Assembly: GCA_002898395.1 (NCBI GenBank)
Contig: BEHE01000010.1
Location: forward strand, 14,976-78,975
DNA from: Candidatus Calditenuaceae archaeon HR02
Lineage (GTDB): Archaea > Thermoproteota > Nitrososphaeria_A > Caldarchaeales > Calditenuaceae
Direction of reading: 5' to 3'
Length of the DNA stretch: 64,000 bases
Below, one piece after another: positions 1,705 to 19,684 of the stretch. The position numbers and the translations under genes are program-made. The notes under the pieces are model-generated. The model was not told the origin of the DNA and did no database searches. It was given only the letters and a program-made list of their open reading frames with translations. Positions within the stretch are counted from its first letter, which is position 1. Each line of letters opens with the position of its first letter.

Positions 1705-2112
1705 CTACGCGGCTGTAAACCATTTAATATCCAGTATGCTCCCGCTCCTTTGTTCTCTAAAAACCGGCCTAACCCTCATACCTGTCTGTGGGTTTATGGA
1801 CGGGTCGAGAATGTGCAGTAATCCCCCATCAACGCCGTCGAATTTTACGAAGACCCATGTAACTGGTGGGTTAACTGGCTCCCCCTCTATGTTGATGAAG
1901 GAGCGTGTATAGGTGACTATCAGCCCCTTTTCTTCGATTGTTTGGTACTCTTTAATAGGCCTGTAGCATTTCAGGCAATAGGCTCTGGGCGGTATTATCA
2001 TGTGATTGCATGTACCGCATTTGCTTGCAATCAGCCTGCCAAGCCTTAACCCTTCCAGGAATCTCGAGAGGGCTACACCTGCAGGATATTCGTAAAAACT
2101 CTCTATACTCAT
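1705..2112 (-). CDS. DUF35 Zn-ribbon/OB-fold protein
   Basis: CGTC..PPRAYC..C, GMRVRPVF; next to thiolase-fold genes. Confidence 0.9.
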   Translation of the reverse strand: MSIESFYEYPAGVALSRFLEGLRLGRLIASKCGTCNHMIIPPRAYCLKCYRPIKEYQTIEEKGLIVTYTRSFINIEGEPVNPPVTWVFVKFDGVDGGLLHILDPSINPQTGMRVRPVFREQRSGSILDIKWFTAA

Positions 2113-2780
2113 AACGCATCATCCTCAAACGGTGCGAAATATCCTATATCTAATATGCTGCCAACCCTTTCCTCTGGCTTTCTCCAAACAGGCTTTACAC
2201 GCATTCCGACATGAACTTTTTCCGGGTCAACTCCCTGAACCTTATGTAATAGGCCTGCGGCATATAGAACTGTTCTGGACGAATTCACCTTTTTAACAGT
2301 TCCGTCGAACCAAACCACAGCAATAATTAGGGGCCTCTCAAACCTGACCTTAGGATCTGTTCCAATATATGATAACGAGTAGGTCGATATGATACCAGTC
2401 CCCGGGTGCTCGATCCATTTGTCTACGTCTCTAAAACACCACTCACAGAAGGTGCGTGGAGGTATCAACACGCGTCCACAGCTTTCGCACCCTGTTCCAA
2501 GTATCTTACCGTTTTTTAGACCCTCGAGAAAACGGGAGAAAGCCATCCCTGCCGAGTGTCTATACATGCATGCAATATGCCAGTAGCTTAGGACAAGATT
2601 ATCGACCTGCCACCCCTCCATCTCCGTGTGTCTCTTCTCTATTGATGAAGCCCAGCTGTCTAATCTCCCAAACTCTTTATCGAGTCCGTGCCTCTGTATG
2701 TACTTGACCAAGTCTTCTGGTAGTTGTTTTAAGTAGTTTGGCGAGAACCTTGAGGGTGTAACTCTTGTCATGACCTGCAC
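2109..2780 (-). CDS. DUF35 Zn-ribbon/OB-fold protein with N-terminal extension
   Basis: CESCGRVLIPPRTFCEWC, GMRVKPVW; overlaps both neighbours. Confidence 0.85.
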   Translation of the reverse strand: MQVMTRVTPSRFSPNYLKQLPEDLVKYIQRHGLDKEFGRLDSWASSIEKRHTEMEGWQVDNLVLSYWHIACMYRHSAGMAFSRFLEGLKNGKILGTGCESCGRVLIPPRTFCEWCFRDVDKWIEHPGTGIISTYSLSYIGTDPKVRFERPLIIAVVWFDGTVKKVNSSRTVLYAAGLLHKVQGVDPEKVHVGMRVKPVWRKPEERVGSILDIGYFAPFEDDAL

Positions 2781-3922
2781 ACCACTACTTGAGCGACCTG
2801 CATCAAGTCACCCCAAGCCTGCGCAACACCGACACACGCATTCGGAACCTGTCTCTTCCCCGCCCTCCCCGATAGCTGCCAGTAAAGCTCAGCAACCTTC
2901 ATCAGCCCTGCAGCCGCTATCGGGTTTCCAACACCTAAGAGGCCGCCTGAAGGGCATGTGGGATAATCTCCATCCCTTTCCAACTGCCCCTCTGCTAAAA
3001 GCTTGGGTGCGAGACCAGGCTTCCCCAGCAGAGCGTCTAGGTGGTGGAGCTCTTTGTAGGTGAATGGGTCATAGGGCTCAAATACATCGATCTCTTTGAG
3101 CGGATTGGCTATCCCGGCCATCTTGTAGGCTTGCTGCGCCGCCAAATAAACGTAGTAGGGGTATGCGAGGTCGCGGTTGGTCCAGAACTGGCTGTCCAGA
3201 CATGCACCCACGCCGTCAATCCAAACAGGCGTGTCGGTTATCTTCTTGGCCTCCTCTTCCGAGGCGAAGACAAGGGCTACGGCTCCGTCTGACGATGGGC
3301 TGATGTCAAGCCTGTGCACGGGCCAAACCAGTACAGGCGACTTAAGGACGTCTTCAACGGTTATTTTTGCTCCCAGCTGGGCGTATGGATGGTCTAGGGC
3401 GTTACCCTTATTCTTGACCGCGACTCGGGCTATCAGCTCCTTAGACAGTTTATGAGCCTCCATGTAGCGGCGCATCTCTAATGCGAATATCCATATCAGG
3501 TTTGGGCCGAGAGGCTGCTCTATAATGGGGTCGAAGATTGTCTTGAAGAGGGGCTGGGCATGTGGGTATGGGTGACTCATCTTCTCCCATGCCACGACCA
3601 AAACTTTCTTGAAGGCTCCTGACGCGACATGCCACCAGCCTGCAACAGCCACACCCACTCCCGTCCCGCCGCCCACATAGATTCTAGAATAGGGTTTTCC
3701 AACCCCGTCAGAGGGCTCAACCCCAACGAGTCCCTTATGATGGTATCCGTCGAATGCGTCGGGTGCCGACCCAGACACTACTGCGTCAATATCTTTGAAC
3801 TCGAGCCCACAGTCATCCAGGCTCTTTCTAGCGGCCTCGTATATCATTTCTTGAGGGGTCATCGGTAGCATGGAGCGGAAATATGTCATCCCCGCGCCAA
3901 CGATAGCTACTTTTTTCCCCAA
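2768..3922 (-). CDS. thiolase-fold protein (SCP2/Ltp2-like, no nucleophilic Cys)
   Basis: VAIVGAGMT, VAVKNKGNA, SDGAVALV, PSGGLLGVGNP. Confidence 0.88.
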   Translation of the reverse strand: MGKKVAIVGAGMTYFRSMLPMTPQEMIYEAARKSLDDCGLEFKDIDAVVSGSAPDAFDGYHHKGLVGVEPSDGVGKPYSRIYVGGGTGVGVAVAGWWHVASGAFKKVLVVAWEKMSHPYPHAQPLFKTIFDPIIEQPLGPNLIWIFALEMRRYMEAHKLSKELIARVAVKNKGNALDHPYAQLGAKITVEDVLKSPVLVWPVHRLDISPSSDGAVALVFASEEEAKKITDTPVWIDGVGACLDSQFWTNRDLAYPYYVYLAAQQAYKMAGIANPLKEIDVFEPYDPFTYKELHHLDALLGKPGLAPKLLAEGQLERDGDYPTCPSGGLLGVGNPIAAAGLMKVAELYWQLSGRAGKRQVPNACVGVAQAWGDLMQVAQVVVCRS

Positions 3923-3926
3923 CTCA

Positions 3927-5030
3927 TCACACCCCTACACTCAGCACCACAGCCGCGCCCCCATCTACAACCTCACCATCAGGTGAGGCCACTATACACG
4001 AACTCCACTTGCCGGTTCTTAGCAGGTTGATGGACTGGGCCAGTCTCTGGAGCCCTGCAGCGTTTAACGGATAACCCATCCCAATACACCCACCCGAAGG
4101 ATTCACCGGTAAATGACCATCTATGTTAAAATCGCCATCCCGCAGAGACTTGCAAATGCTCTCCCTAACGACGCCTAGTGCCTCCAATACCGTCAGCTCG
4201 CTGTGGGCGAAAGGCTCTGAAATCTCTACAAAATCTATCCTCCTGAGCCTTGTCTGCTTAAAAGCCATGTTTGCCGCAGCCCTTGCCCAGCGTGACTGGC
4301 CCCACACCTTTAAAGAAAAGTCTGGCGAGTAGCTGCCCGCAGCAAATCCGAAAGCCTCAACCCGCACCTCTCCAAGGCTCCTCTCCGTGGTCAACAAGAT
4401 GGCCGCAGCATACTCACAGGGCGCTGCGACGTGACCCCTCCTTAGCGGCTCCGATATAACCTCCGTACCCTCAACCCCCTCGACAGACGTATCTTCAGCA
4501 AATGCCGCCGAAGGGTTTTTGAGAGCATTCCTCTTATTTTTGACTGCGACTAGGGAAAGGTCACTGGCCTCGCAGCCAGAGTTTGCAAGATACGCCTGTG
4601 CATCCAGTGCGGCAATGGTATAGAAATGGGGGGTGAGTGGTCTGATAAGGTGTGGGTCGAAAGAGTTTAAAACGATTTCGGGATAGTTTAGAATATCTGA
4701 GGCCTTGGCATAGGCCGTAACTAAAATGGTTCTGAATTGCCCCGTCCTCAAAAGCATACACCCGTGGATAAACGCGTTCAAGGCGTCATTGGAGACGAGG
4801 GTGTTGAACTTTAGGCGTCCACCCACTTGGTCAGGCGTGTATGAATCAGTAATGCTCATACCCTCATAGAAATCCATGCCGCTGGAAACTATACCATCCA
4901 CGTCTGCTGGTGTAATCCCGGCGTCGAAGTAGGCTTTCACCGCAGCCCTGTACAGCATCTCCCTAAAATCCATGTCATCGTATCTTGATCTACAGGGGAT
5001 TTCACCTACACCAGCAATCCAAATGTCCAT
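3927..5030 (-). CDS. thiolase-fold protein, second divergent subunit
   Basis: IWIAGVG, VAVKNKRNALKNP, VNPSGGCIGMGYP; ATG at 5030 avoids overlap with the upstream gene. Confidence 0.85.
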   Translation of the reverse strand: MDIWIAGVGEIPCRSRYDDMDFREMLYRAAVKAYFDAGITPADVDGIVSSGMDFYEGMSITDSYTPDQVGGRLKFNTLVSNDALNAFIHGCMLLRTGQFRTILVTAYAKASDILNYPEIVLNSFDPHLIRPLTPHFYTIAALDAQAYLANSGCEASDLSLVAVKNKRNALKNPSAAFAEDTSVEGVEGTEVISEPLRRGHVAAPCEYAAAILLTTERSLGEVRVEAFGFAAGSYSPDFSLKVWGQSRWARAAANMAFKQTRLRRIDFVEISEPFAHSELTVLEALGVVRESICKSLRDGDFNIDGHLPVNPSGGCIGMGYPLNAAGLQRLAQSINLLRTGKWSSCIVASPDGEVVDGGAAVVLSVGV

Positions 5031-5040
5031 CCCAACACCC

Positions 5041-6180
5041 CTAGTAGGATTTTGGCAGACCCAAAACATGTCGGCCGATGTAGCTAAGCACAAGCTCGTT
5101 GGTGACTGGGGCGGTTATGAAGAGTCTTATAACTGGATAGAACGTTATAATGTCTGTGTCTATATCGTAGGCATTGCCCCCAAAGGTCTGCATCGCTATC
5201 TCAAAGGCCTCCAAACCAGCCTCAGAGGCGACAAGCTTAGCCATGTTTGCCTCAGCTCCCACCTTTCCCCCACCGTCGAATAGTCTAGCCGCATGATAGT
5301 TCAGGGACCTGGCAGCCTCTAAATGCGCCTTGGCACGCGCCATCCTAAACTGAAGACCCTGATAAGACCCTATCGGCTTATCAAAGACAACCCTCTGCTT
5401 AGCATACTCGACAGCCCTCTTAAGGACATATTCCCCTAAACCTATACTACAGGCAGCTATCAATATTCTCTCCACATTAAGACAGTCGAAAAGATAACTG
5501 GCCCCCTTATCCGCTTCCCCTATCAGATTCTCATCGCCCAGCTCGACATCATCAAAATAAACAGTATACTGACTCTCCGGGGAATATAGCTCAATGTTAA
5601 GTGCCTCGAACGATATTCCACTCGTGCTTGTCTCCACAATAAACAACGATATACCATCCTTCTTATCCTCAACCTCCTCGTATCTTTTCGTCCTAGCCAC
5701 TATAAGCAGGTAGTCTGACTCGCGCGCGCCTGTAATGAATGTCTTCTGCCCGTTCAAGATATAGCCGCCGTCCCTCCTTTTTGCAAATGTTCTTATCCGC
5801 CAAGTATTCGAGCCGGCCTCGGCCTCCGTAATGCAAAAGCTTATCTTCTTTCCCTGCTCACATGTAGGTCTGACAAACTTTTCAAATTGCTGCTCAGTCC
5901 CATACCTATCTATTACCGTCCTAGAGAGATGTGTTGTCAGAAATTGAAGGAGGGGTAGCCCGGCCCTCGCTAGGCCTTCCTGAACAAGGACGGCCTCCAA
6001 GAGCGCTGTGCCCGAAACTCTTTTAACACCTACGCTTGTTAGGTTTGTCTTTAAGAGTTCCCCCCACAACAACTCAGGACTTTTCTTCTCACGAGCACAA
6101 CGCAACCAATAATCCCTGCCAACAATTGTACCTATTCTTTCAGCTGTTTTAAGAATTAATACCTCCTCTTCTGAAAGCAT
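5041..6180 (-). CDS. acyl-CoA dehydrogenase
   Basis: FCITEAEAGSN, LNGQKTFITGA, RVVFDKPIGSYQ, QTFGGNAY. Confidence 0.93.
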   Translation of the reverse strand: MLSEEEVLILKTAERIGTIVGRDYWLRCAREKKSPELLWGELLKTNLTSVGVKRVSGTALLEAVLVQEGLARAGLPLLQFLTTHLSRTVIDRYGTEQQFEKFVRPTCEQGKKISFCITEAEAGSNTWRIRTFAKRRDGGYILNGQKTFITGARESDYLLIVARTKRYEEVEDKKDGISLFIVETSTSGISFEALNIELYSPESQYTVYFDDVELGDENLIGEADKGASYLFDCLNVERILIAACSIGLGEYVLKRAVEYAKQRVVFDKPIGSYQGLQFRMARAKAHLEAARSLNYHAARLFDGGGKVGAEANMAKLVASEAGLEAFEIAMQTFGGNAYDIDTDIITFYPVIRLFITAPVTNELVLSYIGRHVLGLPKSY

Positions 6181-9382: not shown

Positions 9383-10450
9383 TCACATTAATGGATTTTG
9401 TCCAATATTGTTTATAGTCCTAAATTCAAAGGATGGTAGGATCAGTTTTACACCACATAACTCGTCAAGTTTCCTTAAAAGGCCGGCCAGCCTCTCGTCC
9501 TTGACTAACTGCTCCACGTTTTTTACAAGCCTTAGCGTGGTGAGGAGTTTTCGCAACATGCGCGGCCCAAAAGGTGCCATCCTAAGAGACTTGTAGAGGG
9601 TCATTCTTTCCTCGATGCTGAAGGTTTTCCCATAGTTTTCCTTGAAATAGGTCTCCAACTCAACAAGGAGATGCTGTAAGCATTTCTCCTGACTGCTATA
9701 ACCGTAGAAGCAGTTGCGACAGTTTGGTGAAAAGACCTCCCTCATTGGCCCCTGTGGTCTCCTCCGGCTATATCTCACCCGCGCTATATGGTCGGCTTTT
9801 TTGAGTCTCTGCACTATCTTGTATATGGCCGCTATGCTCAAGCCGTAGGGCCGCATCTTCACATATATGTCCTCCACTGATACGTATATCTCTGTACAAA
9901 GGATGGACATGACTAGTTCCTCACTCCACGTGGGAATGCTTCGAAGTATAAGCTCTAAAGCCTCAACCAAATGTCTACTTCCAGCTCTCACCACTCCACC
10001 GTCGATCAGCTTTTCACTGTCGAGCACTCTCATTAGAATCTCCCTACATTTTGCGTGGTCTATGCCACTTACTTCTGCAATCATGTCGAGCGGGATATTT
10101 TCCCATCCTTTAGCGGAAGCTATATATAGTGTAGACCAGATGACTCGAACTGTCTCGTTTCTCCAACTTTTCCTAACTATCCATAGAAAATTTCTTAGAG
10201 CTTTGAAGACCTCGTTTTTCTGAATGAGATACGATGTTGGTGAAGTTTTTTGTTTTTGCAGCCCTAGGAGGCGAATGAGGTTTTCCAGAATAATCTCCGC
10301 CTCAGAGCGGCTTGGAAAGAGGAGGAGTCTCTCATCAAACTCCTCGATCCTGTAAAGTGGTGAGTGTATGAACCGATCCTCGCTCCATGCTAATGGAGGA
10401 TGTAAGGCTAGGAGAGTCATCAATAGGTTAGCTTGACCCTTGCCCCCCAC
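9383..10450 (-). CDS. hypothetical protein, probable multi-wHTH transcriptional regulator
   Basis: two HTH-like segments (LDMIAEVSGID; SIAAIYKIVQRLKK) and CRNC..C; divergent from the oxidoreductase operon. Confidence 0.55.
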   Translation of the reverse strand: MGGKGQANLLMTLLALHPPLAWSEDRFIHSPLYRIEEFDERLLLFPSRSEAEIILENLIRLLGLQKQKTSPTSYLIQKNEVFKALRNFLWIVRKSWRNETVRVIWSTLYIASAKGWENIPLDMIAEVSGIDHAKCREILMRVLDSEKLIDGGVVRAGSRHLVEALELILRSIPTWSEELVMSILCTEIYVSVEDIYVKMRPYGLSIAAIYKIVQRLKKADHIARVRYSRRRPQGPMREVFSPNCRNCFYGYSSQEKCLQHLLVELETYFKENYGKTFSIEERMTLYKSLRMAPFGPRMLRKLLTTLRLVKNVEQLVKDERLAGLLRKLDELCGVKLILPSFEFRTINNIGQNPLM

Positions 10451-10559
10451 AGTAGTTAGTTGGCTTAAAGACCTATATATTGCTTAATGAAGTCCCATTC
10501 AAATATAAGGTATTGTATATTGGACCGAGTAGAATATTTAATAGTGTATATAATTATGC

Positions 10560-10862
10560 ATGCCGATAACGATTTGTTGGGCCTTGTCGGCTCAAGCTTT
10601 GAAAATATTGCGTGAACCGATTAACCTAGCTTTGTTCCGGAGACCGTTGGGGCGGGTCTATGTTATACCTGAGAGGTGTAAAGAGTGTGGGTTTTGCTGG
10701 AGTTTCTGCCCCATGGACGTTCTCGAGCGGTCTGACGAGTTCAATCCAAATGGATATAGGTATCCTAAAGTCAAGTCAGGGAAGGAAAACGACTGCGTCA
10801 ATTGTAAGATGTGTAGCCTGATATGCCCTGAGCTAGCCATCTACACAGTTGAGGTGAGCTAG
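10560..10862 (+). CDS. korD: 2-oxoacid:ferredoxin oxidoreductase delta subunit (2x[4Fe-4S])
   Basis: CKECGFCWSFCP and CVNCKMCSLICP. Confidence 0.85.
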   Translation: MPITICWALSAQALKILREPINLALFRRPLGRVYVIPERCKECGFCWSFCPMDVLERSDEFNPNGYRYPKVKSGKENDCVNCKMCSLICPELAIYTVEVS

Positions 10863-10866
10863 CAGT

Positions 10867-12012
10867 ATGAGTAGCGGCTTGCCGAGGCCTGGTGTCCACT
10901 TCATGATGGGAAACTTCGCCTGTGTCGAGGCTGCCATACTTGCCGGGTGTAGGTTCTTCGCAGGATATCCCATCACTCCCTCCAGCGAGATCTTCGAGAG
11001 GGCTTGTGTAAGGTTTCCACAGGTCGGAGGGATAGCCGTTGAGATGGAGGATGAGATGGCGAGCGTGGCCGCCCTTATCGGCGCATCTTATGCAGGGGCC
11101 AAAGCTATGACTGCTACGTCCGGCCCTGGTTTCAGCTTGATGATGGAGAACATAGGATTGGCGTTCATAATGGAGGCGCCAATAGTGATCGTCAACGTTC
11201 AGAGGGCGGGGCCAAGCACCGGAATCCCCACTCTGATAGGACAGGGTGACGTTATGCAGGCTAGATGGGGTTCTCACGGGGACATTGAGACAGTAGTCTA
11301 CTCTCCCAGCAGCGTCCAAGAGTTCTTCGACCTAACAATTCAGGCATTTAATACGGCGGAAAGACTCCGCACACCCGTCATCGTGCTGACTGACCAGCTA
11401 GTAGGGCTGATGTGGGAGAAAGTAGTCATTCCATCACCTGAGGAGGTGAAAGTCGTGGAGAGAAAGATTATGGATGCGCGGCTCCTCTCTACGAGGCTAC
11501 CATTCGACTACACTGTAGACGTAAATCCAATGCCTATAGTGGGGACGGGCTGCAGAGTAAACATTGACAGCCTCACGCATGATGAGAGAGGCTACCCGAC
11601 CACATCCCAAGAGATTTCTGAAAAAATGCTTCGATATCTACTCGGCAAGATTAGGAACCACGCCCGTGAGCTTTGGCTGTATAAGGAATTCATGATCGAT
11701 GATGCAGAGGTGGTTGTGGTTGCCTATGGATCTACGGCTAGGTCGGCCTTGAATGCTGTTAAGCAGGCCCGTTCACGGGGGATTAAGGCTGGGTTACTTC
11801 AGCTCATCACCCTATGGCCCTTCCCGAGCGATGTGATTGAGAAGGTAAGCCAGCACGTCAACGCCCTCGTAGTGCCTGAGATAAACTTCGGCCAGCTCGT
11901 ACACCCCATCAGGGAGTACGCCAAATGCCCAATCCTAGAGGTTAACTGGGCTCCAGGCAGTCTGATAGAACCGAACGTCATCTTAGACGCCGTGGGGGTG
12001 GCTGCGGCGTGA
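10867..12012 (+). CDS. korA: 2-oxoacid:ferredoxin oxidoreductase alpha subunit
   Basis: GYPITPSSE, TATSGPGFSLM, QRAGPSTG. Confidence 0.93.
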   Translation: MSSGLPRPGVHFMMGNFACVEAAILAGCRFFAGYPITPSSEIFERACVRFPQVGGIAVEMEDEMASVAALIGASYAGAKAMTATSGPGFSLMMENIGLAFIMEAPIVIVNVQRAGPSTGIPTLIGQGDVMQARWGSHGDIETVVYSPSSVQEFFDLTIQAFNTAERLRTPVIVLTDQLVGLMWEKVVIPSPEEVKVVERKIMDARLLSTRLPFDYTVDVNPMPIVGTGCRVNIDSLTHDERGYPTTSQEISEKMLRYLLGKIRNHARELWLYKEFMIDDAEVVVVAYGSTARSALNAVKQARSRGIKAGLLQLITLWPFPSDVIEKVSQHVNALVVPEINFGQLVHPIREYAKCPILEVNWAPGSLIEPNVILDAVGVAAA

Positions 12013-12860
12013 CCCAGGTAGTCAAGGCCCGGCGCCATCCCAGGGATAGCCTATTACGAAGTGAGAGGCTTCCGCACATTTGGTGCCCCGGATGTGGCAT
12101 CGGCATAATCATGGCCGCCTATGCAGACGCCATAGAGGCATCAGGTATTCCACCTGAGAAGCATGTCTGCATCTCCGGAATAGGCTGTACTGGGAGGGTT
12201 TCCGGCTACATGCATCTCGACTCATTCCATACGACACATGGCCGAGCCATAGCCTTCGCCACAGGCCTATCTCTTGTGAGGCCTGACCTGGAGGTCACCG
12301 TCATCTCAGGTGATGGGGACATCTGTACGATAGGTGGGAACCATTTGATACATGCTGCTAGGAGGAACGTCGACATCAACGTGATAATGGTAAACAACTT
12401 CAACTATGGTATGACGGGGGGCCAGCACGGCGGTACCACACCCCTCGGAGCAAAGACATACACATCACCTTACGGCAATTTTGAAGCCCCATTCAACATA
12501 CCCTATCTAGTGGCCGCTGCAGGAGCCTCGTTCGTGGCTAGATGGACGACCCTACACGTAAGGCAGCTGATCAATGCAATGAAGCGCATGATGAGTGTGG
12601 AGGGTTTCTCTTTCATTGAGGTCATATCGCCTTGTCCACCCACGTTCGGCGAGTTCAACAACTTTCCTGAAGCCCTCGATATGATGGAGTACTTCAGGAA
12701 GTATTCGGTGATAGACCATAATGCCGATCTAAGCAAGATAGGCATACGCCTCCAAGGCGAGCCACTGGTTGTCGGAAACTTCGTTGACAAGAGGAGGCCG
12801 AGCTACCAGGAGCTTGTGCAGGAAACTATCAGAAAAGCTGCCGGGAGGGAGAGCGTTTGA
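12009..12860 (+). CDS. korB: 2-oxoacid:ferredoxin oxidoreductase beta subunit
   Basis: WCPGCG, SGIGC, GDGD..NN TPP motif, YGMTGGQ. Confidence 0.93.
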   Translation: MTQVVKARRHPRDSLLRSERLPHIWCPGCGIGIIMAAYADAIEASGIPPEKHVCISGIGCTGRVSGYMHLDSFHTTHGRAIAFATGLSLVRPDLEVTVISGDGDICTIGGNHLIHAARRNVDINVIMVNNFNYGMTGGQHGGTTPLGAKTYTSPYGNFEAPFNIPYLVAAAGASFVARWTTLHVRQLINAMKRMMSVEGFSFIEVISPCPPTFGEFNNFPEALDMMEYFRKYSVIDHNADLSKIGIRLQGEPLVVGNFVDKRRPSYQELVQETIRKAAGRESV

Positions 12861-13414
12861 GACACGAGGTTAGGATCACAGGGCTAGGTGGCCAAGGGGC
12901 CATAACGGCTGGTCATATACTTGGAAGAGCCGCGGCAATATACGGAGACAAGGAAGCAGTAGTGACTGAGGGCTACAGCCCATACATAACCGGCGGCTGG
13001 TCGAGAGCCGACGTAATAATCTCCGACGAACCCATAGACTACCCGCTTATCACCAAGCTAGACGTCTTAGCCACAATGTATGATGAAGGTTTTGTTCAAA
13101 ACCTTAGACACGTCAAAAGCAGAGGTGTAATAATAACCGTGAAAGAGCTAGTCAAACATTCTTCAAAGGATCACAAGGTTTTGCCGATACCTGCCATCGA
13201 GGTAGCTGAGCAGTTAGGAAGAAGGATAGTCGCTAATATCGTGATACTCGGGGCCATAACTGCTGTCTTGGGTACACCACCCCTAGAGTCGGTTGAGAAG
13301 GCACTGGCCGACAGGTTTCCAAAGGCGGTTGAGCTTAACCGCAAAGCTGTACAACAAGGCTACAGCATAGCATCTGAGCTGCTCGCAAGCACAGATGTTT
13401 TGGAGGAGAGGTGA
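12857..13414 (+). CDS. korC: 2-oxoacid:ferredoxin oxidoreductase gamma subunit
   Basis: GLGGQGAITAG, ANIVILGA. Confidence 0.88.
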   Translation: MRHEVRITGLGGQGAITAGHILGRAAAIYGDKEAVVTEGYSPYITGGWSRADVIISDEPIDYPLITKLDVLATMYDEGFVQNLRHVKSRGVIITVKELVKHSSKDHKVLPIPAIEVAEQLGRRIVANIVILGAITAVLGTPPLESVEKALADRFPKAVELNRKAVQQGYSIASELLASTDVLEER

Positions 13415-16400
13415 AAGGGCTGGCAGACGCTGTCCTGGTTATAGGAGGCGGGATAGCGGGGGTTCAGGCATCACTCGACCTAGCCAAGGCCGGTGCCAAG
13501 GTCTACCTTGTCGAAAAAAGTCCCGTGATAGGAGGGCGGATGGCTGCACTAGACAAAAACTTCCCCACCATGGATTGCTCGATCTGTATAGAGGCACCCA
13601 AGCTAAGCGAGGTGATGCAGAACAAAAACATCAAGGTCTTAACGCTGGCGGAGGTCGTTGAAGCTCGAGGCGAGGCTGGAAACTTTCACGTAAAAGTTGT
13701 CCAGAAGCCCCGCTTCGTCACTGATGAATGTACGAGGTGCGGTGACTGTGTGCCCGCATGCCCAGTCATACTGAAGAACGAGTTTGATGTAGGGATGGGT
13801 GCTAGGAAGGCTATATACCTCCCCTTCGACCAAGCCGAGCCGGGGACGTACGTAATAGACATTGAGAACTGTTTAAACAAGCCGCCCAACTATCTGCCCT
13901 GTAACAGATGTGTCGAGGCATGCGGGCCAAAATGCATAGATTTCGAGATGAAAGAGAAAATCCATGAACTGAATGTGGGCGCAATAATAGTTGCAGCTGG
14001 CTCGGACCTCTTCGACGCCTCATTAATTCCGGAGCTAGGCTATGGAAGACACCCCGACATCCTCACAGCAATGGAACTCGAAAGACTTCTACAATCGAGT
14101 GGCCCCTCAAGGGGCGAGGTCATAAAGCCCAGCAACCACCGCCACCCAGAAAGAGTAGCGTTCATCCTATGCGTGGGGGCTCGCGACAATAGGTTTTATG
14201 GTTTCTGTAGCAGGGTCTGCTGCATGTACAGCATCAAGGAGGCGTTGCAGCTTGTTGACCATGGAATCAAAGATGTCACGGTCTTCTACATGGATATAAG
14301 AGCTTATGGAAAAGGCTTCGACGAGATGTTTGAGAGAGCGAAGAAGAGTGGTGTCAGGTTTATACGAAGCAGGCCTGGAAGAGTTATACCCAATGGTGAC
14401 CGCATAGAGGTATTCTATGAGGACACGACTACTGGAGAGTTAAGGAAAGAAACTTTTGACATGGTTGTCCTTTCAACAGCTCTCGTACCATCAGAAGAGT
14501 TAAACAGGTTAGCTAAAACCTTGGGGATAGAGGTGGGCGAAGATGGCTTCATCAAAGCATATGAAATAGACGGAGACTTCGTCGGGACATCGAGGAGGGG
14601 GATATATGTCTGTGGCTGCGCAGCCGGTCCTAAAGACATTCCTGACAGCGTTACAGAGGCCGGTGCGGCTGCTGCAAAAGCGCTAACCCATCTGACTTCA
14701 AGGGTCGTAGAGCCTGAAATCTTCGAGGAGACCATAGACGCCTCGGGGGAGCCCCGGATCGGTGTATTCATCTGCCATTGTGGCTCCAACATAGCGGGAG
14801 TGGTTGATATAAAAACTGCCGTTGAGCAGTCCAAGAAAATACCCTATGTAGTGCATGTAGAAGACCAGAAATTCTCGTGCTCTGGAGCGGGTACGAAGCA
14901 TATAGAGAACGTGATAAGGGAGAAGAGGCTTAACAGGGTTGTTGTGGCGGCCTGCTCGCCGAAGACTCATAGCCCAACCTTCATGAGAGCCTGTGCCAGG
15001 GCTGGACTTAACCCATACCTCCTGGAGATGGCTAACATACGCAACCTTAACTCATGGGTCCACAAAAACCAGCCAGAAGAGGCCACAAGAAAAGCTATAG
15101 ACCTAATCTCTATGGCGGTTGCTAAAGTGGTCTTACAAAACCCAATGACCAAGCTATCAACCCCCGTCCTGCAAAAGGTCCTAGTCATAGGAGGGGGTGT
15201 GGCTGGGATGACTGCCGCCACTGCCCTCGCAGAGATGGGATTCGAGACACATCTAGTTGAGAAGGAACATGAGCTGGGCGGTCTCCTCAGATATTTCAGA
15301 GAAATTGCTCCATCCGGCATAGATGCCCAGAGCTTCTTGCAATGGAAGATAAAACAGCTGGAGAAATCAGGTGCCAAGATTCATCTGGGTACAGAGGTAG
15401 CCGAGGTAACGGGTTTCGTCGGAAACTATCATGTTACACTTTCTAACGGAGAGGAACTCGATGTAGGCGCCATAATATTGGCCACAGGAGGTAAGGTTCA
15501 CGAGCCAAGCTGGCCCAAAATAGAAGCCGATAAGCCAAGGGTCGCGACGCTACTCAGATACGAGATAGATGGCGTCCCAGAAGACGCTAGAAACATAGTC
15601 TTCATAGGATGTGTGGGTTCAAGAAACATGATCAGGGGATGCTCAAGATATTGCTGCCAAACCATCATTTATCATGCCCTCAAGCTTAGGAGAAGTGGCA
15701 AGAACGTCTCAGTAATTGTCAAAGATGTCAGGACCTATGGGAGGGGGGCTGAGAAGCTGTATAGGAAAGCCTGCGAAGAGGGTGTGAGGTTTATCAGAGT
15801 GGAGACAGAGAAGCCAATTGAAGACCTTGTTCGAATAGGAGAAGAAGGCATAACAGTACGAGACATCACAATTGGAGAGACACTAAACATACCCGCAGAC
15901 TACATCGTTCTGGCCACGGCCATAGACCCTCCTGCAGAGATAGCGGCGGCCCAGCAGCTCAGAGTCGCCAAGGACTCGGAGGGATTCTTCCTCGAACTCC
16001 ACCCGAAGCTGGGGCCTGTCGAATCGATAACACAGGGCGTCTTCCTCGCAGGTATCGCCCAAGGACCCAAAGATGTTGGGGAGAGCATTTCGCAGGGATT
16101 GGCCGCCTCAGCAAAGGCAGCCGCACTGCTCACATCATCACAGCTTGAGAAAGAGCCCTTAATCCCAATCATAAATCCGCAAAAATGTACAAAATGTATG
16201 AGGTGCGCCCAGGTCTGCCCATATGGTGCGATTAAGGGCGAGCTGAGGAAATGGATAGAGATTATACCGGGCCTCTGCCAGGGATGTGGCGCATGTGTTT
16301 CTGAGTGCAATGTTGAAGGAGCTATAACAATGCCAGGATTCACGGATGAGCAATTGATGGCGCAAATAGATGCGGCGTTAGCCGAAAACCCAGAAGAGAA

Positions 16401-16797
16401 GGCGATAGTTTTCGCATGTAATTGGTGCAGCTACGCCGGCGCAGACTTGGCCGGCATCCTCAAAATACAGTACCCGCCAACATGCCGGGTTATACGCACA
16501 ATGTGCTCTGCAAGAGTCTCGCAGAAGCTTATTCTATACGCATTCAAAAAAGGCGCAGGTGCCGTCTTCGTCACAGGATGCTGGCCACAAGACTGCCACT
16601 ACAACTATGCCAACCTCAACACAAAGAGGCGTTACGAACACTGGCTCAAAATAGTACAGGCCAGAAACATAGACCCAAAGAGACTCCAGCTCCACTGGAT
16701 AAGCGCCGCCGAGGCCAAGAGATTTGCAGAGAAAATGACAGAGGCCCATGAGGTCGTAATGAGTTTGAAGAAGGATAAGATGCGGGTGGGTGGCTAA
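13411..16797 (+). CDS. hdrA: heterodisulfide reductase A-like flavoprotein (two HdrA modules) fused to MvhD
   Basis: two GGGxAG FAD motifs, LDKNFPTMDC, CSRVCC, CHCGSNIAG, ferredoxin motifs, C-terminal FACNWCSYAGAD..MCSARV..GC..DCHY. Confidence 0.92.
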   Translation: MKGLADAVLVIGGGIAGVQASLDLAKAGAKVYLVEKSPVIGGRMAALDKNFPTMDCSICIEAPKLSEVMQNKNIKVLTLAEVVEARGEAGNFHVKVVQKPRFVTDECTRCGDCVPACPVILKNEFDVGMGARKAIYLPFDQAEPGTYVIDIENCLNKPPNYLPCNRCVEACGPKCIDFEMKEKIHELNVGAIIVAAGSDLFDASLIPELGYGRHPDILTAMELERLLQSSGPSRGEVIKPSNHRHPERVAFILCVGARDNRFYGFCSRVCCMYSIKEALQLVDHGIKDVTVFYMDIRAYGKGFDEMFERAKKSGVRFIRSRPGRVIPNGDRIEVFYEDTTTGELRKETFDMVVLSTALVPSEELNRLAKTLGIEVGEDGFIKAYEIDGDFVGTSRRGIYVCGCAAGPKDIPDSVTEAGAAAAKALTHLTSRVVEPEIFEETIDASGEPRIGVFICHCGSNIAGVVDIKTAVEQSKKIPYVVHVEDQKFSCSGAGTKHIENVIREKRLNRVVVAACSPKTHSPTFMRACARAGLNPYLLEMANIRNLNSWVHKNQPEEATRKAIDLISMAVAKVVLQNPMTKLSTPVLQKVLVIGGGVAGMTAATALAEMGFETHLVEKEHELGGLLRYFREIAPSGIDAQSFLQWKIKQLEKSGAKIHLGTEVAEVTGFVGNYHVTLSNGEELDVGAIILATGGKVHEPSWPKIEADKPRVATLLRYEIDGVPEDARNIVFIGCVGSRNMIRGCSRYCCQTIIYHALKLRRSGKNVSVIVKDVRTYGRGAEKLYRKACEEGVRFIRVETEKPIEDLVRIGEEGITVRDITIGETLNIPADYIVLATAIDPPAEIAAAQQLRVAKDSEGFFLELHPKLGPVESITQGVFLAGIAQGPKDVGESISQGLAASAKAAALLTSSQLEKEPLIPIINPQKCTKCMRCAQVCPYGAIKGELRKWIEIIPGLCQGCGACVSECNVEGAITMPGFTDEQLMAQIDAALAENPEEKAIVFACNWCSYAGADLAGILKIQYPPTCRVIRTMCSARVSQKLILYAFKKGAGAVFVTGCWPQDCHYNYANLNTKRRYEHWLKIVQARNIDPKRLQLHWISAAEAKRFAEKMTEAHEVVMSLKKDKMRVGG

Positions 16798-17937
16798 ATG
16801 TACCGGAGCCTTTCAGAGCTTTTCACCGACAGGGTATTGGCCGAAAGCATCACAGCCTGCTTCCAGTGCGGAGCATGCACAGCAGCCTGCCCCCTCAACA
16901 TCTTCGACGGCCTAAAACTAAGTCCAAGACAGTTTCTCCGAAGGATGCAACTAGGCCTACCCATAAACATCGAGCCGTATCTCTGCATGATGTGCAAAGC
17001 CTGCGAAACAGTCTGTCCGCGAAATGTTAAAATCACAAAAATAATTCACGAGCTAAGAAAAATCTGGTTTAGGAACAATAGAGTCCCCACGCCTCTCACT
17101 CAAGCGCTCTGGAAGATCTATGAGGATGGAAATCCGTGGGGCTACCCGTCACGGACAAGAGGCCAGTGGCTCGATAAGCTAGACGTAAACATATCTAAGA
17201 AGAAGGGCGAAACACTCCTCTATGTCGGATGCATCTCATCTTACGATATACGCCTCCAGGGGATAGCAACTGCTATCGTAAAACTTTTACTTAAAGCGGA
17301 GGTTGATTTCACAGTTCTCGGTGATGAAGAGAGGTGTTGCGGGGACCCAGTATACCATACGGGCGAAACAGACTTCTTAGAGGAGTTGATCAACGAAAAC
17401 ATAGCCAAATTCAACTCCGTGGGTGTGAGAAGAATAGTAGCCCTCTCTCCCCACTGCTACATTATGTTCCGGGATATCTATCCCAAGTATGGAGGTGAAT
17501 ATGAAGTCCTTCACTACACAGAGTATCTTGCAGAACTCATAGACTCTGGAAAACTATCAATCGATACACGATTAGAAGCTAGAGCAACCTATCATGACCC
17601 ATGCTATTTAGGTAGATATGCTAAGATATACGAGCAGCCGCGAAGACTGGTAGAGAGCGTTAAAGGACTCTCATTTTCGGAGATGAGCCTCTCAAAAGAA
17701 CTATCACTCTGCTGTGGTGGAGGAGGGGGACGGATACTGATGGAGTCAAAACCCGAGGAAAGGCCCTCAAACATAAGAGTCAAACAGGCAGTTGAGACGG
17801 GGGCAGAAATCCTGCTAACTTCGTGCCCCTACTGCATAATAAACTTCGAAGACTCCGCAAAGATCCAGAAAGCGCCCCTCAAGGTAATGGATGTTGCAGA
17901 GCTTCTACAAGCTGCAGCAGGTGGTCAAGATGGGTGA
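16798..17937 (+). CDS. HdrD/GlpC-like Fe-S oxidoreductase (CCG domains)
   Basis: CFQCGACTAACP, CMMCKACETVCP, RCCG, YHDPCYLGR, CCGGGGG, SCPYC. Confidence 0.9.
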   Translation: MYRSLSELFTDRVLAESITACFQCGACTAACPLNIFDGLKLSPRQFLRRMQLGLPINIEPYLCMMCKACETVCPRNVKITKIIHELRKIWFRNNRVPTPLTQALWKIYEDGNPWGYPSRTRGQWLDKLDVNISKKKGETLLYVGCISSYDIRLQGIATAIVKLLLKAEVDFTVLGDEERCCGDPVYHTGETDFLEELINENIAKFNSVGVRRIVALSPHCYIMFRDIYPKYGGEYEVLHYTEYLAELIDSGKLSIDTRLEARATYHDPCYLGRYAKIYEQPRRLVESVKGLSFSEMSLSKELSLCCGGGGGRILMESKPEERPSNIRVKQAVETGAEILLTSCPYCIINFEDSAKIQKAPLKVMDVAELLQAAAGGQDG

Positions 17938-18901
17938 GATCTGGTCTTTTGTGGAAGTAGGGCCCGAAGGGATCGAAGCCGTGTCACTGGAGATAATCGG
18001 TAAAGCGGCTGAGCTTGGGGATCAGAGCAACATGAGAACAGCTGCAGTCCTAACGGGGTGGGGAATGGAAAAAATTGTCAAAGAAGTCTCAAGATACCCA
18101 GTCGATAGGGTGTACTATGTTGAACATGGCGAGTTGGCCTTTTACGATCCGGCGAAACACGCAAATGCCCTACACCAACTGGTTGAAAAGGAGAAACCCG
18201 AGATAGTGCTCTTCGGAGCGACATATAATGGAGTCGACATAGCCGCTAGGTTGGCCATTAGGGCTGAAGCAGGCCTAATAGCTCATGTGACATACCTCGG
18301 CATAGACCCCTCAGACGGAAGGCTCGTAGGACATGTACCAGGATTCGGTGGAGGCATCGTAGCAGTCTGCAAATGCAGGCCAGGCGTTCTACAGATAGCC
18401 ACAGTGAGGCCGGGGGTTTTCGAGAGACCAATCCCAACAGGACATGAGGCGGAGATCCATAGGTTTAGCCCGAAGCTCCACCCAACGAATGGGTGGAGAA
18501 TCGTCGAGAGACGTGTAGCGAAGGTGGTGGACATTACGCGGGCTGAAAAAGTCGTCGTGGCGGGCATGGGGACGGGTGGAGAACTCTCCCTCGCTAAGAC
18601 GCTCGCTCAGAAGTTGGGCGCACAACTGGCGGTGACAAGGCCTCTAGCAGACTTGGGGCTCGCTCCCAGAGACGTCCAAGTAGGCTCCACTGGCGTCAGC
18701 CTAAGATCCAATATAGCTTTAATCCTTGGAGTGAGTGGGGCATCACACTTCGTCTCAGGAATACGGGATGTGAAAACAGTAATCTCGATCAATATTGACA
18801 GAAATGCGCCAATATTCCAGTTCTCCGACTACTGTGTAGAGGCCGACCTCTTCAAACTAGTCCCAAAGATTATTGAAGAGTTTGAGAAGGAGGGTGCATA
18901 A
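17930..18901 (+). CDS. etfA: electron transfer flavoprotein alpha subunit
   Basis: ATVRPGVF, QVGSTG, GVSGASHF, INIDRNAPIF. Confidence 0.92.
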   Translation: MGEIWSFVEVGPEGIEAVSLEIIGKAAELGDQSNMRTAAVLTGWGMEKIVKEVSRYPVDRVYYVEHGELAFYDPAKHANALHQLVEKEKPEIVLFGATYNGVDIAARLAIRAEAGLIAHVTYLGIDPSDGRLVGHVPGFGGGIVAVCKCRPGVLQIATVRPGVFERPIPTGHEAEIHRFSPKLHPTNGWRIVERRVAKVVDITRAEKVVVAGMGTGGELSLAKTLAQKLGAQLAVTRPLADLGLAPRDVQVGSTGVSLRSNIALILGVSGASHFVSGIRDVKTVISINIDRNAPIFQFSDYCVEADLFKLVPKIIEEFEKEGA

Positions 18902-19684
18902 ATGGAGATAGTAGTGTGTGTTAAGGTTGTTCCGAAGGTCGAGCAAGTCAGATTGGACCCTATAACCAAAACCGTAGATAGGACATCTGCTGAGAACGAG
19001 CTTAACGACGCTGATAAAAACGCCGTCGAGGCTGCGCTACAACTAAAAGACAGATATGGCAGCAGGGTCACGGTGCTATCAATGGGGCCGCTATTCTTCG
19101 AGCCTCTCCTAAAACTGTGTGTGGCTATGGGTGCTGACGATGCGATACTCCTCTCCGACAAGGCCTTCGCAGGTGCAGACACCTACGCGACATCATACGT
19201 CTTAGCCCAGGCCATAAAGAGGCTAAGACCGGACATAATCCTCTGCGGCGAAAGCACCTCCGACTCAGGGACTGCCCAGGTTCCTCCCCAAATAGCAGAG
19301 TGGCTCGGATACCCGAACATCTCCTACGTATCACACATCAGCATAGAGGATAGAGTTGTAGTGGCTAAACGCACAGTAAAAGGCGGATACGAAGTAGTGA
19401 AAGTACCATTACCTGTAGTTATGTCGGTAGAGCTAGGAAGCAACACGCCGAGATTCCCTGACTTTAAGAGAAAGAGATGGGCCGAACGAGAATTCAAAAT
19501 AACCATATGGACCGCTAACGACCTCGAGCTAGACCTAAACCTCACGGGCAAGACAGGGTCAAAGACAGAAGTAATAGAGCTCCACCCAATAGCACCACCA
19601 CAGAGGCTGAGAAAGTTTCTAGAGGGTTCAGAAGAAGAAAAAGCGAGGGCAATCATAAAAATAATCAGAGAGTCAAAAGGCTAA
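18902..19684 (+). CDS. etfB: electron transfer flavoprotein beta subunit
   Basis: IVVCVKVVP, DKNAVEAAL, AMGAD, FAGADTYAT, DSGTAQV. Confidence 0.93.
   Translation: MEIVVCVKVVPKVEQVRLDPITKTVDRTSAENELNDADKNAVEAALQLKDRYGSRVTVLSMGPLFFEPLLKLCVAMGADDAILLSDKAFAGADTYATSYVLAQAIKRLRPDIILCGESTSDSGTAQVPPQIAEWLGYPNISYVSHISIEDRVVVAKRTVKGGYEVVKVPLPVVMSVELGSNTPRFPDFKRKRWAEREFKITIWTANDLELDLNLTGKTGSKTEVIELHPIAPPQRLRKFLEGSEEEKARAIIKIIRESKG

Follow-up and report, generated by a model that had tools for sequence, protein, structure and literature searches.

A gene block conserved across archaeal and bacterial phyla encodes a candidate soluble electron-bifurcating complex of a 2-oxoacid:ferredoxin oxidoreductase, an HdrA-HdrA-MvhD fusion, an EtfD-like protein and an Etf

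Background

Flavin-based electron bifurcation (FBEB) explains how ferredoxin-level potentials can be reached without ATP, and to our knowledge only about a dozen enzyme types of this kind have been characterised. A stretch of DNA from the hot-spring archaeon Candidatus Calditenuaceae archaeon HR02 (assembly GCA_002898395.1, contig BEHE01000010.1, forward-strand positions 14,976 to 78,975; 64,000 nucleotides, hereafter the window, to whose first letter all coordinates refer) raises the question of whether there might be a further one. Positions 10560-19684 of the window hold eight co-directional genes on the + strand, which code in this order for the delta, alpha, beta and gamma subunits of a 2-oxoacid:ferredoxin oxidoreductase (OFOR), a fusion of two HdrA units with MvhD, an HdrD-like CCG protein, EtfA and EtfB. 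Why should an OFOR be encoded in one string with the core of a heterodisulfide reductase (Hdr) and with an electron-transfer flavoprotein (Etf), and in which direction would electrons run between them? An original prediction, made from the DNA letters alone, had taken the string for a soluble flavin-based bifurcating or confurcating unit, and the analysis reported here supports such a unit as a candidate. We give a probability of about one half to the reading that the eight genes encode a single soluble HdrA-type bifurcating complex, in which the OFOR serves as the low-potential branch and the Etf as the high-potential branch.

Organization of the gene block

All eight open reading frames of the original prediction were recovered at the positions proposed for them, and Pfam and NCBIfam models both agreed with each of the family assignments. 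The genes are closely packed: with the start of EtfA taken as 17930, successive junctions measure +4, -4, -4, -4, 0, -8 and 0 bases, and the stop codon of the OFOR gamma gene overlaps the start of the HdrA fusion. No 19-residue window in any of the eight proteins exceeds 1.83 on the Kyte-Doolittle scale, whereas an EtfD-like membrane protein encoded elsewhere in the genome peaks at 2.1-2.4. Hydrogenase and formate dehydrogenase are absent from the eight genes and, as judged by the Pfam domains of the neighboring genes, from the flanks; the block also contains no ferredoxin gene of its own. Thus, the tight junctions, the hydropathy and the domains of the flanking genes bear out the earlier description of a single operon-like block devoid of hydrogenase, formate dehydrogenase and membrane anchor.

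Conservation and co-inheritance

Full-length orthologues of the HdrA fusion were sought in a related set of 41 genomes (Caldarchaeales) and were recovered from eight of them at 60-100% identity (G000, G002, G005, G006 in two pieces, G027, G033, G037 and G039). The seven loci inspected among these all preserve the whole eight-gene string in the same order, along with a divergently oriented gene for a 355-aa protein. The distribution within the order is patchy, with the fusion being found in 4/8 genomes of the genus, none in three sister genera, 1/9 in family f4 and 3/9 in family f3. In the protein database, fusions of ~1130 aa with 53-60% identity are seen in proteins bearing the names Aigarchaeota, Nitrososphaerota, Thermoplasmata, Rokubacteria/Methylomirabilia, Elusimicrobia, Armatimonadota and Kariarchaeaceae. 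A scan of a collection of 185,579 representative species with the fusion matched at least 600 stretches, from which the best 80 loci were kept; 31 of these 80 contain the fusion at an identity of at least 49%, and three without a full match, at which the same neighbors were seen, were left out of the counts to give 28. Among these 28 loci, the gene for OFOR gamma lies directly upstream of the fusion in 25/25 cases where at least 700 nt were available, and the complete set of four OFOR genes precedes it in 21/21 cases where at least 3200 nt were. On the downstream side, an HdrD-like gene is present in 23 of the 24 loci with at least 1300 nt, and the HdrD-like gene, EtfA and EtfB occur together in 19/19 loci with at least 3300 nt. 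The carriers include Thermoplasmatota, Chloroflexota, Elusimicrobiota, Bathyarchaeia, Methylomirabilota-type bacteria and Aigarchaeota. This arrangement is far beyond chance and keeps the same order across phyla. The survey across genomes that the original prediction had proposed as a check thus finds the string both in the eight relatives among the 41 and across archaeal and bacterial phyla, and the linkage is clearly not unique to this genome.

The other 49 of the best 80 loci, with fusions at 37-44% identity, have an HdrD-like gene in 25 instances, an OFOR in two (L043 and L045) and an Etf in none. L043 (Calditrichota) and L045 (Pseudomonadota) belong to a distant clade of fusions at 40-42% identity and carry OFOR delta-alpha-beta-gamma directly upstream and an HdrD-like gene downstream, with no Etf. 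Given that OFOR and HdrA stand together in these two without Etf, the link between OFOR and HdrA recurs with different partner modules.

In a FastTree phylogeny of 86 HdrA fusions, the groups of which were set by sequence and not by gene context, the OFOR-linked loci fall into a single clade (35 rows; SH-like support 100), in which archaeal and bacterial sequences are intermingled. Distance matrices of six subunits from 23 loci correlate with r of 0.80-0.94 (Mantel p 0.001; kinship inflates such tests), and the OFOR tracks the Hdr and Etf proteins as closely as the OFOR subunits track one another (r 0.94 for alpha versus HdrAA; r 0.87 for alpha versus beta). Clustering of 233 open reading frames from the flanks of 34 loci revealed no further gene family that recurs beyond close relatives, indicating that the block is self-contained. 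Together the conserved gene order, the tree, the co-inheritance and the bare flanks indicate that the block is an autonomous unit that moves horizontally. The block of G027 of family f4 (locus L015) is 70-91% identical to that of the window genus and is its sister on the tree, and six other genomes of G027's genus are without it; it looks like a recent transfer within the order.

The HdrA-HdrA-MvhD fusion

The fusion gene (13411..16797, + strand) codes for an HdrA-type protein of 1128 aa (FlpD/MvhD 2.2e-41; Pyr_redox_2 6.1e-28; PDB 5odc_A, E 1.1e-183). It had originally been described as HdrA-MvhD; the HdrA and MvhD parts are indeed present, but the gene holds two HdrA cores and not one, which are 34% identical to each other over 254 residues (E 3e-26). 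The first HdrA unit (residues 1-445; 13411..14745, + strand) is predicted to consist of an FAD domain with the hallmarks of bifurcation, an inserted ferredoxin domain with two [4Fe-4S] clusters and a further cluster, and is aligned to 5odc_A 141-515, with residues 3-378 matching the FAD domain of the methanogen HdrA and its inserted ferredoxin domain. It displays GGGIAG at residue 12, and C56-x-x-C59 and K276 are present in 12/12 cross-phylum homologues. Its cysteines lie at residues 107, 110, 113, 117, 154, 164, 167, 171 and 175, and additionally at 254, 266, 270 and 271. K276 aligns to the lysine of the CCMYxxK stretch in 5odc_A, which we take to be the flavin-N5 lysine of HdrA.

The second HdrA unit (residues 447-990; 14749..16380, + strand) is predicted to contain an N-terminal cluster domain, a second FAD domain devoid of the hallmarks and a C-terminal ferredoxin domain with two [4Fe-4S] clusters; its residues 447-618 align to HdrA 3-174 and residues 852-989 to HdrA 510-649. 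It displays GGGVAG at residue 594, has neither a CxxC nor an inserted ferredoxin domain, and its counterpart of K276 is Y754, a position that varies in the 12 homologues (Y, K, Q, N, Q, R, A, G, G, Y, Q, S). The MvhD-like [2Fe-2S] adaptor is fused at the C-terminus (residues 995-1119; 16393..16767, + strand; FlpD 2.2e-41; MvhD chains in the PDB 1.7e-33 to 1.6e-18), and its C1003, C1006, C1032, C1057 and C1062 are invariant in 12/12 homologues. As read from these residues, the fusion has HdrA-type bifurcating-flavin features in its first unit only, and the bifurcating activity itself is predicted. For the full 1128 aa, AlphaFold2 reached no more than pLDDT 75.8, with values under 50 in the CxxC loop and in the inserted ferredoxin domain; no inference draws on this model. 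With 1149 bits the fusion clears the cut-off (1100) of NCBIfam's 'CoB-CoM heterodisulfide reductase HdrA2' even though the only HdrB-type partner in the genome is an EtfD-like head, and automatic annotation would therefore misname it.

Two orthologues of the fusion have unusual gene structures. In L015 (G027:C25, protein P0004), an intein of ~530 aa with Pfam Intein_splicing and LAGLIDADG_3 domains is inserted immediately before the second cysteine of C56-x-x-C59; joined without it, the flanking parts restore the window sequence exactly around residues 54-64, and the frame is open over 1657 aa. In L019 (G006:C29), from the same genus as the window, the fusion is spread over two open reading frames that cover query residues 3-573 and 530-1128 and repeat ~40 residues where they part; this could be a real split or an artefact of assembly or frameshift.

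The HdrD-like CCG protein

The next gene (16798..17937, + strand) encodes an HdrD-like CCG protein of 379 aa (CCG 9.5e-30, matched over two stretches; Fer4_8), in which two CCG domains accompany two cubane clusters. Of the solved structures, the soluble head of M. smegmatis EtfD (PDB 9ojn_A, E 1.7e-50) stands nearest to it, whereas HdrB is matched only at 5e-5. An AlphaFold2 model of the protein (pLDDT 91.5) gives the same ranking in Foldseek, with 9ojn at E 2.2e-24 and a TM-score (TMq) of 0.87, against 0.50-0.52 for HdrB and ~0.5 for LutA. The cubane ligands C21/24/27/31 and C63/66/69/73 are invariant, as are all five cysteines of the second CCG motif (C269, C305, C306, C343, C346). The first CCG motif reads C145...C180 C181...S217-P-H219-C220, giving nine motif cysteines in total against ten in catalytic HdrB/HdrD. 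Across 23 orthologues H219 is invariant and S217 is conserved in at least 90%; counted on the 9ojn_A alignment, H219 corresponds to H583 of EtfD and S217 to C581. According to the accessible text of a preprint on EMO (bioRxiv 10.64898/2026.08.18.745454), this histidine fills the coenzyme M (CoM) site, the distal cluster is variable, and the clusters pass on electrons from ETF without catalysis; the accessible text of the EtfD paper (PMC13083937) agrees with it on the cluster ligands. By analogy, the substrate site of the CCG protein is likely to be closed, as in EMO/BamD.

The protein has no membrane heme-b domain (maximum hydropathy 1.52, no N-terminal extension) and hence cannot reduce quinone itself. 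Being in effect a membrane-less head of the EtfD/EMO type, it is more likely to dock an ETF than to reduce a disulfide. It is best read as an ETF-docking electron wire that has lost its membrane part and is plugged into HdrAA, and not as a disulfide reductase. Thus, the thiol or disulfide chemistry that the original prediction had placed at the CCG protein appears less likely than plain electron transfer to Etf, given the closeness to EtfD, the EMO-type histidine and the cysteine-to-serine change in one CCG motif. Outside the window (G000:C14:28242-30248) the genome further encodes an EtfD/EMO-like membrane protein of 668 aa, in which an HdrD-like head is combined with five hydrophobic segments; the soluble half of this protein and the CCG protein are 31% identical. 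The genome contains no other HdrB-type CCG partner, with PF02754 matching just 3 proteins.

The OFOR and the Etf

The four OFOR genes form a complete set of the Kor/Oor type. OFOR delta (10560..10862, + strand) is a ferredoxin-like protein with two [4Fe-4S] clusters (Fer4 2.8e-10; NCBIfam OGOR_delta 48.5 bits, below the cut-off of 125), and its two CxxCxxCxxxC motifs are both invariant across 25 orthologues. The alpha subunit (10867..12012, + strand) combines POR_N (5.6e-64) and PFOR_II (1.5e-19) and scores 501 bits with NCBIfam PRK08659 against an equivalog cut-off of 411; its top PDB matches are 1yd7_A (3.1e-120), which bears a generic name only, and 8ys5_A ('2-oxoglutarate synthase subunit alpha', 3.7e-70). 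The TPP-binding beta subunit (12009..12860, + strand; TPP_enzyme_C 8e-33) reaches 235 bits with the NCBIfam model for the beta subunit of 2-oxoglutarate ferredoxin oxidoreductase, below its cut-off of 364, and gamma (12857..13414, + strand; POR 4.8e-31) reaches 153.8 bits with PRK08537, below 235. On this domain and family evidence the enzyme is Kor-like. Its best named relatives are 2-oxoglutarate enzymes (the NCBIfam models for beta and delta, both below cut-off, and PDB 8ys5_A and 6n2n_A), and 2-oxoglutarate is probably its substrate.

EtfA, the large subunit (17930..18901, + strand; ETF 1.1e-31, ETF_alpha 1e-18), lies in a longest open reading frame that begins at 17891. An in-frame ATG at 17930 overlaps the stop of the HdrD-like gene (ATGGGTGA), alignment to the PDB begins at residue 16 of the long form, and 17930 is most likely the true start. 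The best PDB matches of EtfA are 6fah_A (9e-53), 5ol2_A, 7koe_B, 7qh2_A and 4kpu_A, all ahead of 1efv_A (1.1e-24). EtfB, the small subunit (18902..19684, + strand; ETF 9.9e-44), likewise matches 4kpu_B (2.2e-49), 5ol2_B, 6fah_B, 7qh2_B and 7koe_A (2.2e-38) best, at 171-135 bits, with 1o94_C (3e-25), 1efv_B (1.1e-16) and 5ow0_B (5.9e-12) behind them; 1o94, 1efv, 1efp and 5ow0 all score at most 92 bits. The output of the PDB search names 6fah and 7qh2 as bifurcating, and we take 4kpu, 5ol2 and 7koe to be bifurcating too, and 1o94, 1efv, 1efp and 5ow0 to be not. Assignment of the Etf to a group had been suggested with the original prediction, and both subunits rank with the bifurcating structures; by similarity ranking alone, the Etf resembles the bifurcating, two-FAD, NADH-linked kind (group 2). 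The genome encodes four Etf pairs, one of them beside a complete beta-oxidation cluster (best PDB match 1o94_C, presumably a non-bifurcating ETF) and another with a FixC-like flavoprotein. Since beta-oxidation is thus adjoined by a different Etf pair, that of the block appears to be a dedicated extra copy. Neither PF01512 (NuoF) nor the ETF-QO ferredoxin domain has a match in the genome, which is 93.65% complete.

Proposed electron flow

In light of these features, we infer that the eight products assemble into one complex. The bifurcating FAD would sit in the first HdrA unit and a non-bifurcating FAD in the second, with the fused MvhD acting as an adaptor. By homology, the high-potential branch would lead from the FAD of the first unit through the HdrD-like protein to the alpha-FAD of the block's own Etf. 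The low-potential branch would run over the ferredoxin-type clusters of the double HdrA to OFOR delta, so that the OFOR takes the place held by the BamBC module in the benzoyl-CoA reductase compared below. To this end, OFOR delta would have to meet one of the two ferredoxin-type ports of HdrAA. The same wiring should be reversible, coupling NAD(H), 2-oxoacid/acyl-CoA+CO2 and Etf, and in the backward direction it would act as a confurcating system.

The standard potential of the 2-oxoglutarate/succinyl-CoA+CO2 couple is about -500 mV and that of NADH is -320 mV. For a Geobacter ETF the accessible text of a recent preprint gives +16 mV (bioRxiv 10.64898/2026.04.10.717634). With ETF set near 0 mV and the OFOR as the low branch, the relation 2 x E(mid) = E(high) + E(low) places the mid-potential partner at about -250 mV, and NADH therefore fits as the donor. 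Given that the Etf resembles the NADH-linked bifurcating kind, NAD(H) is also the most likely mid-potential partner. An OFOR acting as a mid-potential donor would need a low-potential acceptor near -1000 mV, and since none is encoded, the low-potential branch is the favored position for the OFOR. The earlier view of the OFOR as a supplier of low-potential electrons is weakened, as it may consume them instead.

Run in the reductive direction, the complex would use NADH to drive the reductive carboxylation of an acyl-CoA, probably of succinyl-CoA to 2-oxoglutarate, in cells that lack a cheap low-potential reductant. The second electron would be vented through Etf to the respiratory chain, with the EtfD-like membrane protein as the acceptor in this respiring heterotroph. 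That this is the physiological direction is a tentative proposal, possible but short of probable. We regard as speculative, and as somewhat unlikely in its entirety, the wider proposal that the block is a horizontally mobile, eight-subunit enzyme of a new FBEB class which unites HdrA-type and Etf-type modules with a 2-oxoglutarate synthase. Such an enzyme would allow organisms without hydrogenases or other low-potential donors, among them aerobes and denitrifiers like the present archaeon, to fix CO2 into 2-oxoglutarate with NADH alone, while handing the spare electron to the respiratory chain.

Neighboring genes

The flanks of the block in the window contain acyl-CoA genes, a gene without a family and an ABC transporter. 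On the - strand, 2109-5093 holds two thiolase-like genes and a gene with a DUF35/ChsH2-type OB-fold in a row, adjoined by genes for an acyl-CoA dehydrogenase, a methyltransferase and an acetyl-CoA-synthetase-like ligase. This neighborhood of thiolase-like, DUF35 and acyl-CoA dehydrogenase genes is conserved in the genus only: the flanks examined contain an acyl-CoA dehydrogenase homologue in 0/28 orthologous loci of other phyla and in 0/4 loci of two other Caldarchaeales families. The original prediction had coupled the block to the acyl-CoA dehydrogenase at 5041-6180. This coupling loses ground with a neighborhood confined to the genus and with a genome that also contains a separate beta-oxidation cluster, adjoined by its own Etf, and further a membrane EtfD-like protein.

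Upstream of the block, and outside its conserved part, lies the divergent 355-aa gene (9383..10450, - strand), which has no family and is kept in this place in 7/7 Caldarchaeales loci at 26-91% identity. It is absent at the loci of other phyla, and it yielded no Pfam or PDB match and, in the protein atlas, just weak leads to helix-turn-helix regulators (0.82); it is possibly a lineage-specific regulator. The AT-rich intergenic region between this gene and the block (10451..10559, + strand) displays TATA-like boxes directly before the ATG of OFOR delta. No Shine-Dalgarno-like motif precedes this ATG, in contrast to the internal genes, which have GGAGG/GGTG-like motifs on their 5' side, and the region is a probable promoter of a leaderless first cistron.

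Alternative readings

Several observations weigh against a single complex with the OFOR as its low-potential branch. A bifurcating, NADH-linked Etf could in principle power an OFOR alone, so that it is unexplained why a second bifurcating flavin should be required; on its MvhD side, the Hdr core has a port to which no partner is assigned. The orthologous locus L037 stops after the HdrA fusion, without HdrD-Etf, and none of the 34 loci contains a fusion between neighboring genes of the block. The scores of beta, gamma and delta below the NCBIfam cut-offs do not settle the substrate specificity, and the organism possesses three further OFORs (four in all) as well as respiratory genes. Finally, in the window genus (g1) the block adjoins acyl-CoA catabolic genes, which would fit an oxidative role. 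In such a role, low-potential electrons from a 2-oxoacid and high-potential electrons from an Etf loaded by an acyl-CoA dehydrogenase would merge at the HdrA flavin and leave at a middle potential to NAD+ or another carrier, thereby upgrading the acyl-CoA electrons. The wiring would be that of the bifurcating complex in reverse, FBEB enzymes being reversible, and the oxidation of 2-oxoacids followed by acyl-CoA dehydrogenation constitutes consecutive steps of amino-acid catabolism. It would also agree with the acyl-CoA synthetase, acyl-CoA dehydrogenase and thiolase-like/DUF35 genes beside the block in this genus, but the absence of the acyl-CoA dehydrogenase neighborhood at 28/28 orthologous loci of other phyla and at those of two other Caldarchaeales families argues otherwise. 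An Etf with 1o94_C, presumably a non-bifurcating ETF, as its best PDB match already adjoins the beta-oxidation cluster of this genome, and an EtfD-like route to quinone is present too. On the standard potentials used above, merging -500 mV with ~0 mV yields ~ -250 mV, from which the reduction of NAD+ (-320 mV) would be uphill unless concentration ratios help, and no mid-potential exit module is encoded. We consider confurcation of this kind, which corresponds to the model of the original prediction, rather unlikely.

A different possibility is that there is no supercomplex, and that a Kor-type OFOR shares no more than a transcript with an Hdr/Etf unit, to which free ferredoxin would link it, the whole being a ferredoxin:Etf or ferredoxin:NAD+ oxidoreductase system. 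Co-transcription of linked but separate enzymes is common, the 34 loci offer no OFOR-Hdr gene fusion, and the inserted ferredoxin domain of canonical HdrA reduces external ferredoxin, according to the accessible text of bioRxiv 10.64898/2026.04.10.717634. The overlap of the gamma stop with the HdrA start, the constant position of gamma directly upstream of the fusion (25/25 loci with room) and the correlation of OFOR with Hdr/Etf distances, which is as strong as that within the OFOR (r 0.94 versus 0.87, as above), speak for a closer association. So do the L043/L045 clade and a cluster of Candidatus Endoriftia discussed below, which likewise embed Kor genes among Hdr genes, and the lack of a free ferredoxin gene in the block, and we consider separate enzymes to be quite improbable. 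The CCG protein might alternatively be a true disulfide reductase, which would use some disulfide (e.g. one bound to CoA or to a protein) as the exergonic branch, with Etf as the NADH input in the role that Flx plays in the Flx-Hdr/Kor clusters, and with OFOR and ferredoxin as the low branch. Its two CCG domains, the second with all five cysteines invariant, would be in keeping with such an activity, as would its best NCBIfam match, the thiol:fumarate reductase subunit TfrB (7.8e-52), were it not that the score of 176.5 bits is far below the cut-off of 385. The replacement of one cysteine of the first CxxC by Ser217 in at least 90% of the 23 orthologues, the invariant His219, which stands where EMO/EtfD have the histidine blocking or ligating the CoM site, and the far weaker likeness to HdrB (5e-5, TM ~0.5) than to EtfD (1.7e-50, TM 0.87) make this the reading to which we attach the least credence, and a very doubtful one.

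Comparison with known systems

The nearest parallel to the proposed bifurcating complex is the BamDEF+ETF core of the class II benzoyl-CoA reductase of Geobacter metallireducens, Bam[(BC)2DEFGHI]2. As described in the accessible text of a preprint (bioRxiv 10.64898/2026.04.10.717634), the bifurcating FAD of BamE, a fusion of two HdrA units, is marked by Lys280 and Cys59-Cys62 and lies in the N-terminal unit only, while the second unit holds a non-bifurcating FAD; BamF acts as an MvhD-like adaptor, and ETF receives the high-potential electron from BamD. The block resembles this core in being soluble, in its fused double HdrA with the hallmark lysine and CxxC at the N-terminal FAD alone, in its MvhD-type [2Fe-2S] adaptor, and in an HdrD-like CCG protein with a histidine ligand, a degenerate second non-cubane site and ETF as its partner; the likeness to BamD and BamE rests on the residue numbers in that text and not on an alignment of sequences. 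It differs in that MvhD is fused and uses cysteine in place of selenocysteine (the frame is open without TGA), and in that a Kor-like OFOR is encoded instead, along with an Etf that is bifurcating-like. The eight proteins and the flanks contain neither the BamBC tungsten module nor the BamGHI input module, and PF01512 has 0 matches genome-wide, AOR not having been searched for at that scale. Locus L049 (Desulfospira, from the 37-44% clade) was considered as a Bam reference and rejected, as its cluster consists of HdrD, HdrAA, a polyferredoxin, HdrA and a molybdopterin oxidoreductase.

The CCG protein shares with EtfD/EMO (PDB 9OJN; PMC13083937; bioRxiv 10.64898/2026.08.18.745454, each as far as its accessible text goes) the two cubane and two non-cubane sites, the same histidine and a variable distal site, with the EtfD/EMO head taking its electrons from ETF. 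It differs from them in having no membrane heme-b domain and in its first CCG motif, which keeps CC where EtfD has CT and has serine where EtfD has Cys581. A precedent for the proposed complex, in the form of a four-subunit Kor-type OFOR among Hdr genes, is provided by the hdr-korDABC-flx cluster in the reductive tricarboxylic acid cycle locus of Candidatus Endoriftia, which the accessible texts of PMC11636981 and PMC13147460 read as NADH-driven bifurcation feeding the synthesis of 2-oxoglutarate. There, according to the same texts, Flx is the NADH input, HdrA is single, HdrBC is separate, Etf is lacking and aclAB and tfrAB are part of the locus, whereas the block in the window is without Flx, ACL and Tfr and its HdrA is a double fusion with MvhD.

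The Mvh/Fdh-HdrABC complexes of methanogens (5ODC, 7BKB, 8RVU) and HdrA2B2C2 have in common with the block the HdrA fold, the cluster motifs and the MvhD adaptor (1.1e-183 to 5odc_A; 1.7e-33 to MvhD). Unlike these, the block has no HdrB or HdrC, hydrogenase, formate dehydrogenase or sign of CoM/CoB chemistry, and its two HdrA units lie in one chain and do not form a homodimer. 'Type II HdrA' with two thioredoxin-reductase domains and fusions of the form HdrA-HdrA-MvhD have been noted in archaea (PMC12054007, PMC11237513), and the fusion architecture is the same as far as the accessible texts describe it. In those cases the clusters contain a molybdopterin oxidoreductase or FdhB and both domains bear the key residues, whereas in the window only the first unit does. 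The text of PMC12054007 has 0 occurrences of Etf or of oxoacid enzymes.

A search of the full-text literature did not find the gene string described; supplements lay outside that search, and the Bam Extended Data on BamD homologues and the NCB-domain phylogeny of EMO could list the clade. Thus, the combination of an OFOR with an HdrA-type core and an Etf of its own is new to the literature searched, though HdrA-type FBEB complexes and HdrA-HdrA(-MvhD) fusions were already known. The block is widespread in uncultured archaea and bacteria, and standard annotation splits it into 'heterodisulfide reductase', '2-oxoacid oxidoreductase' and 'Etf', so that a coupling site is probably missed when the metabolism of the carrier groups is reconstructed. 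Being compact and autonomous, it lends itself to a direct test of the hypothesis by heterologous expression. If the proposal is true, the block would encode an FBEB enzyme whose low-potential partner is an OFOR that forms or breaks C-C bonds and whose high-potential partner, as in benzoyl-CoA reductase, is ETF.

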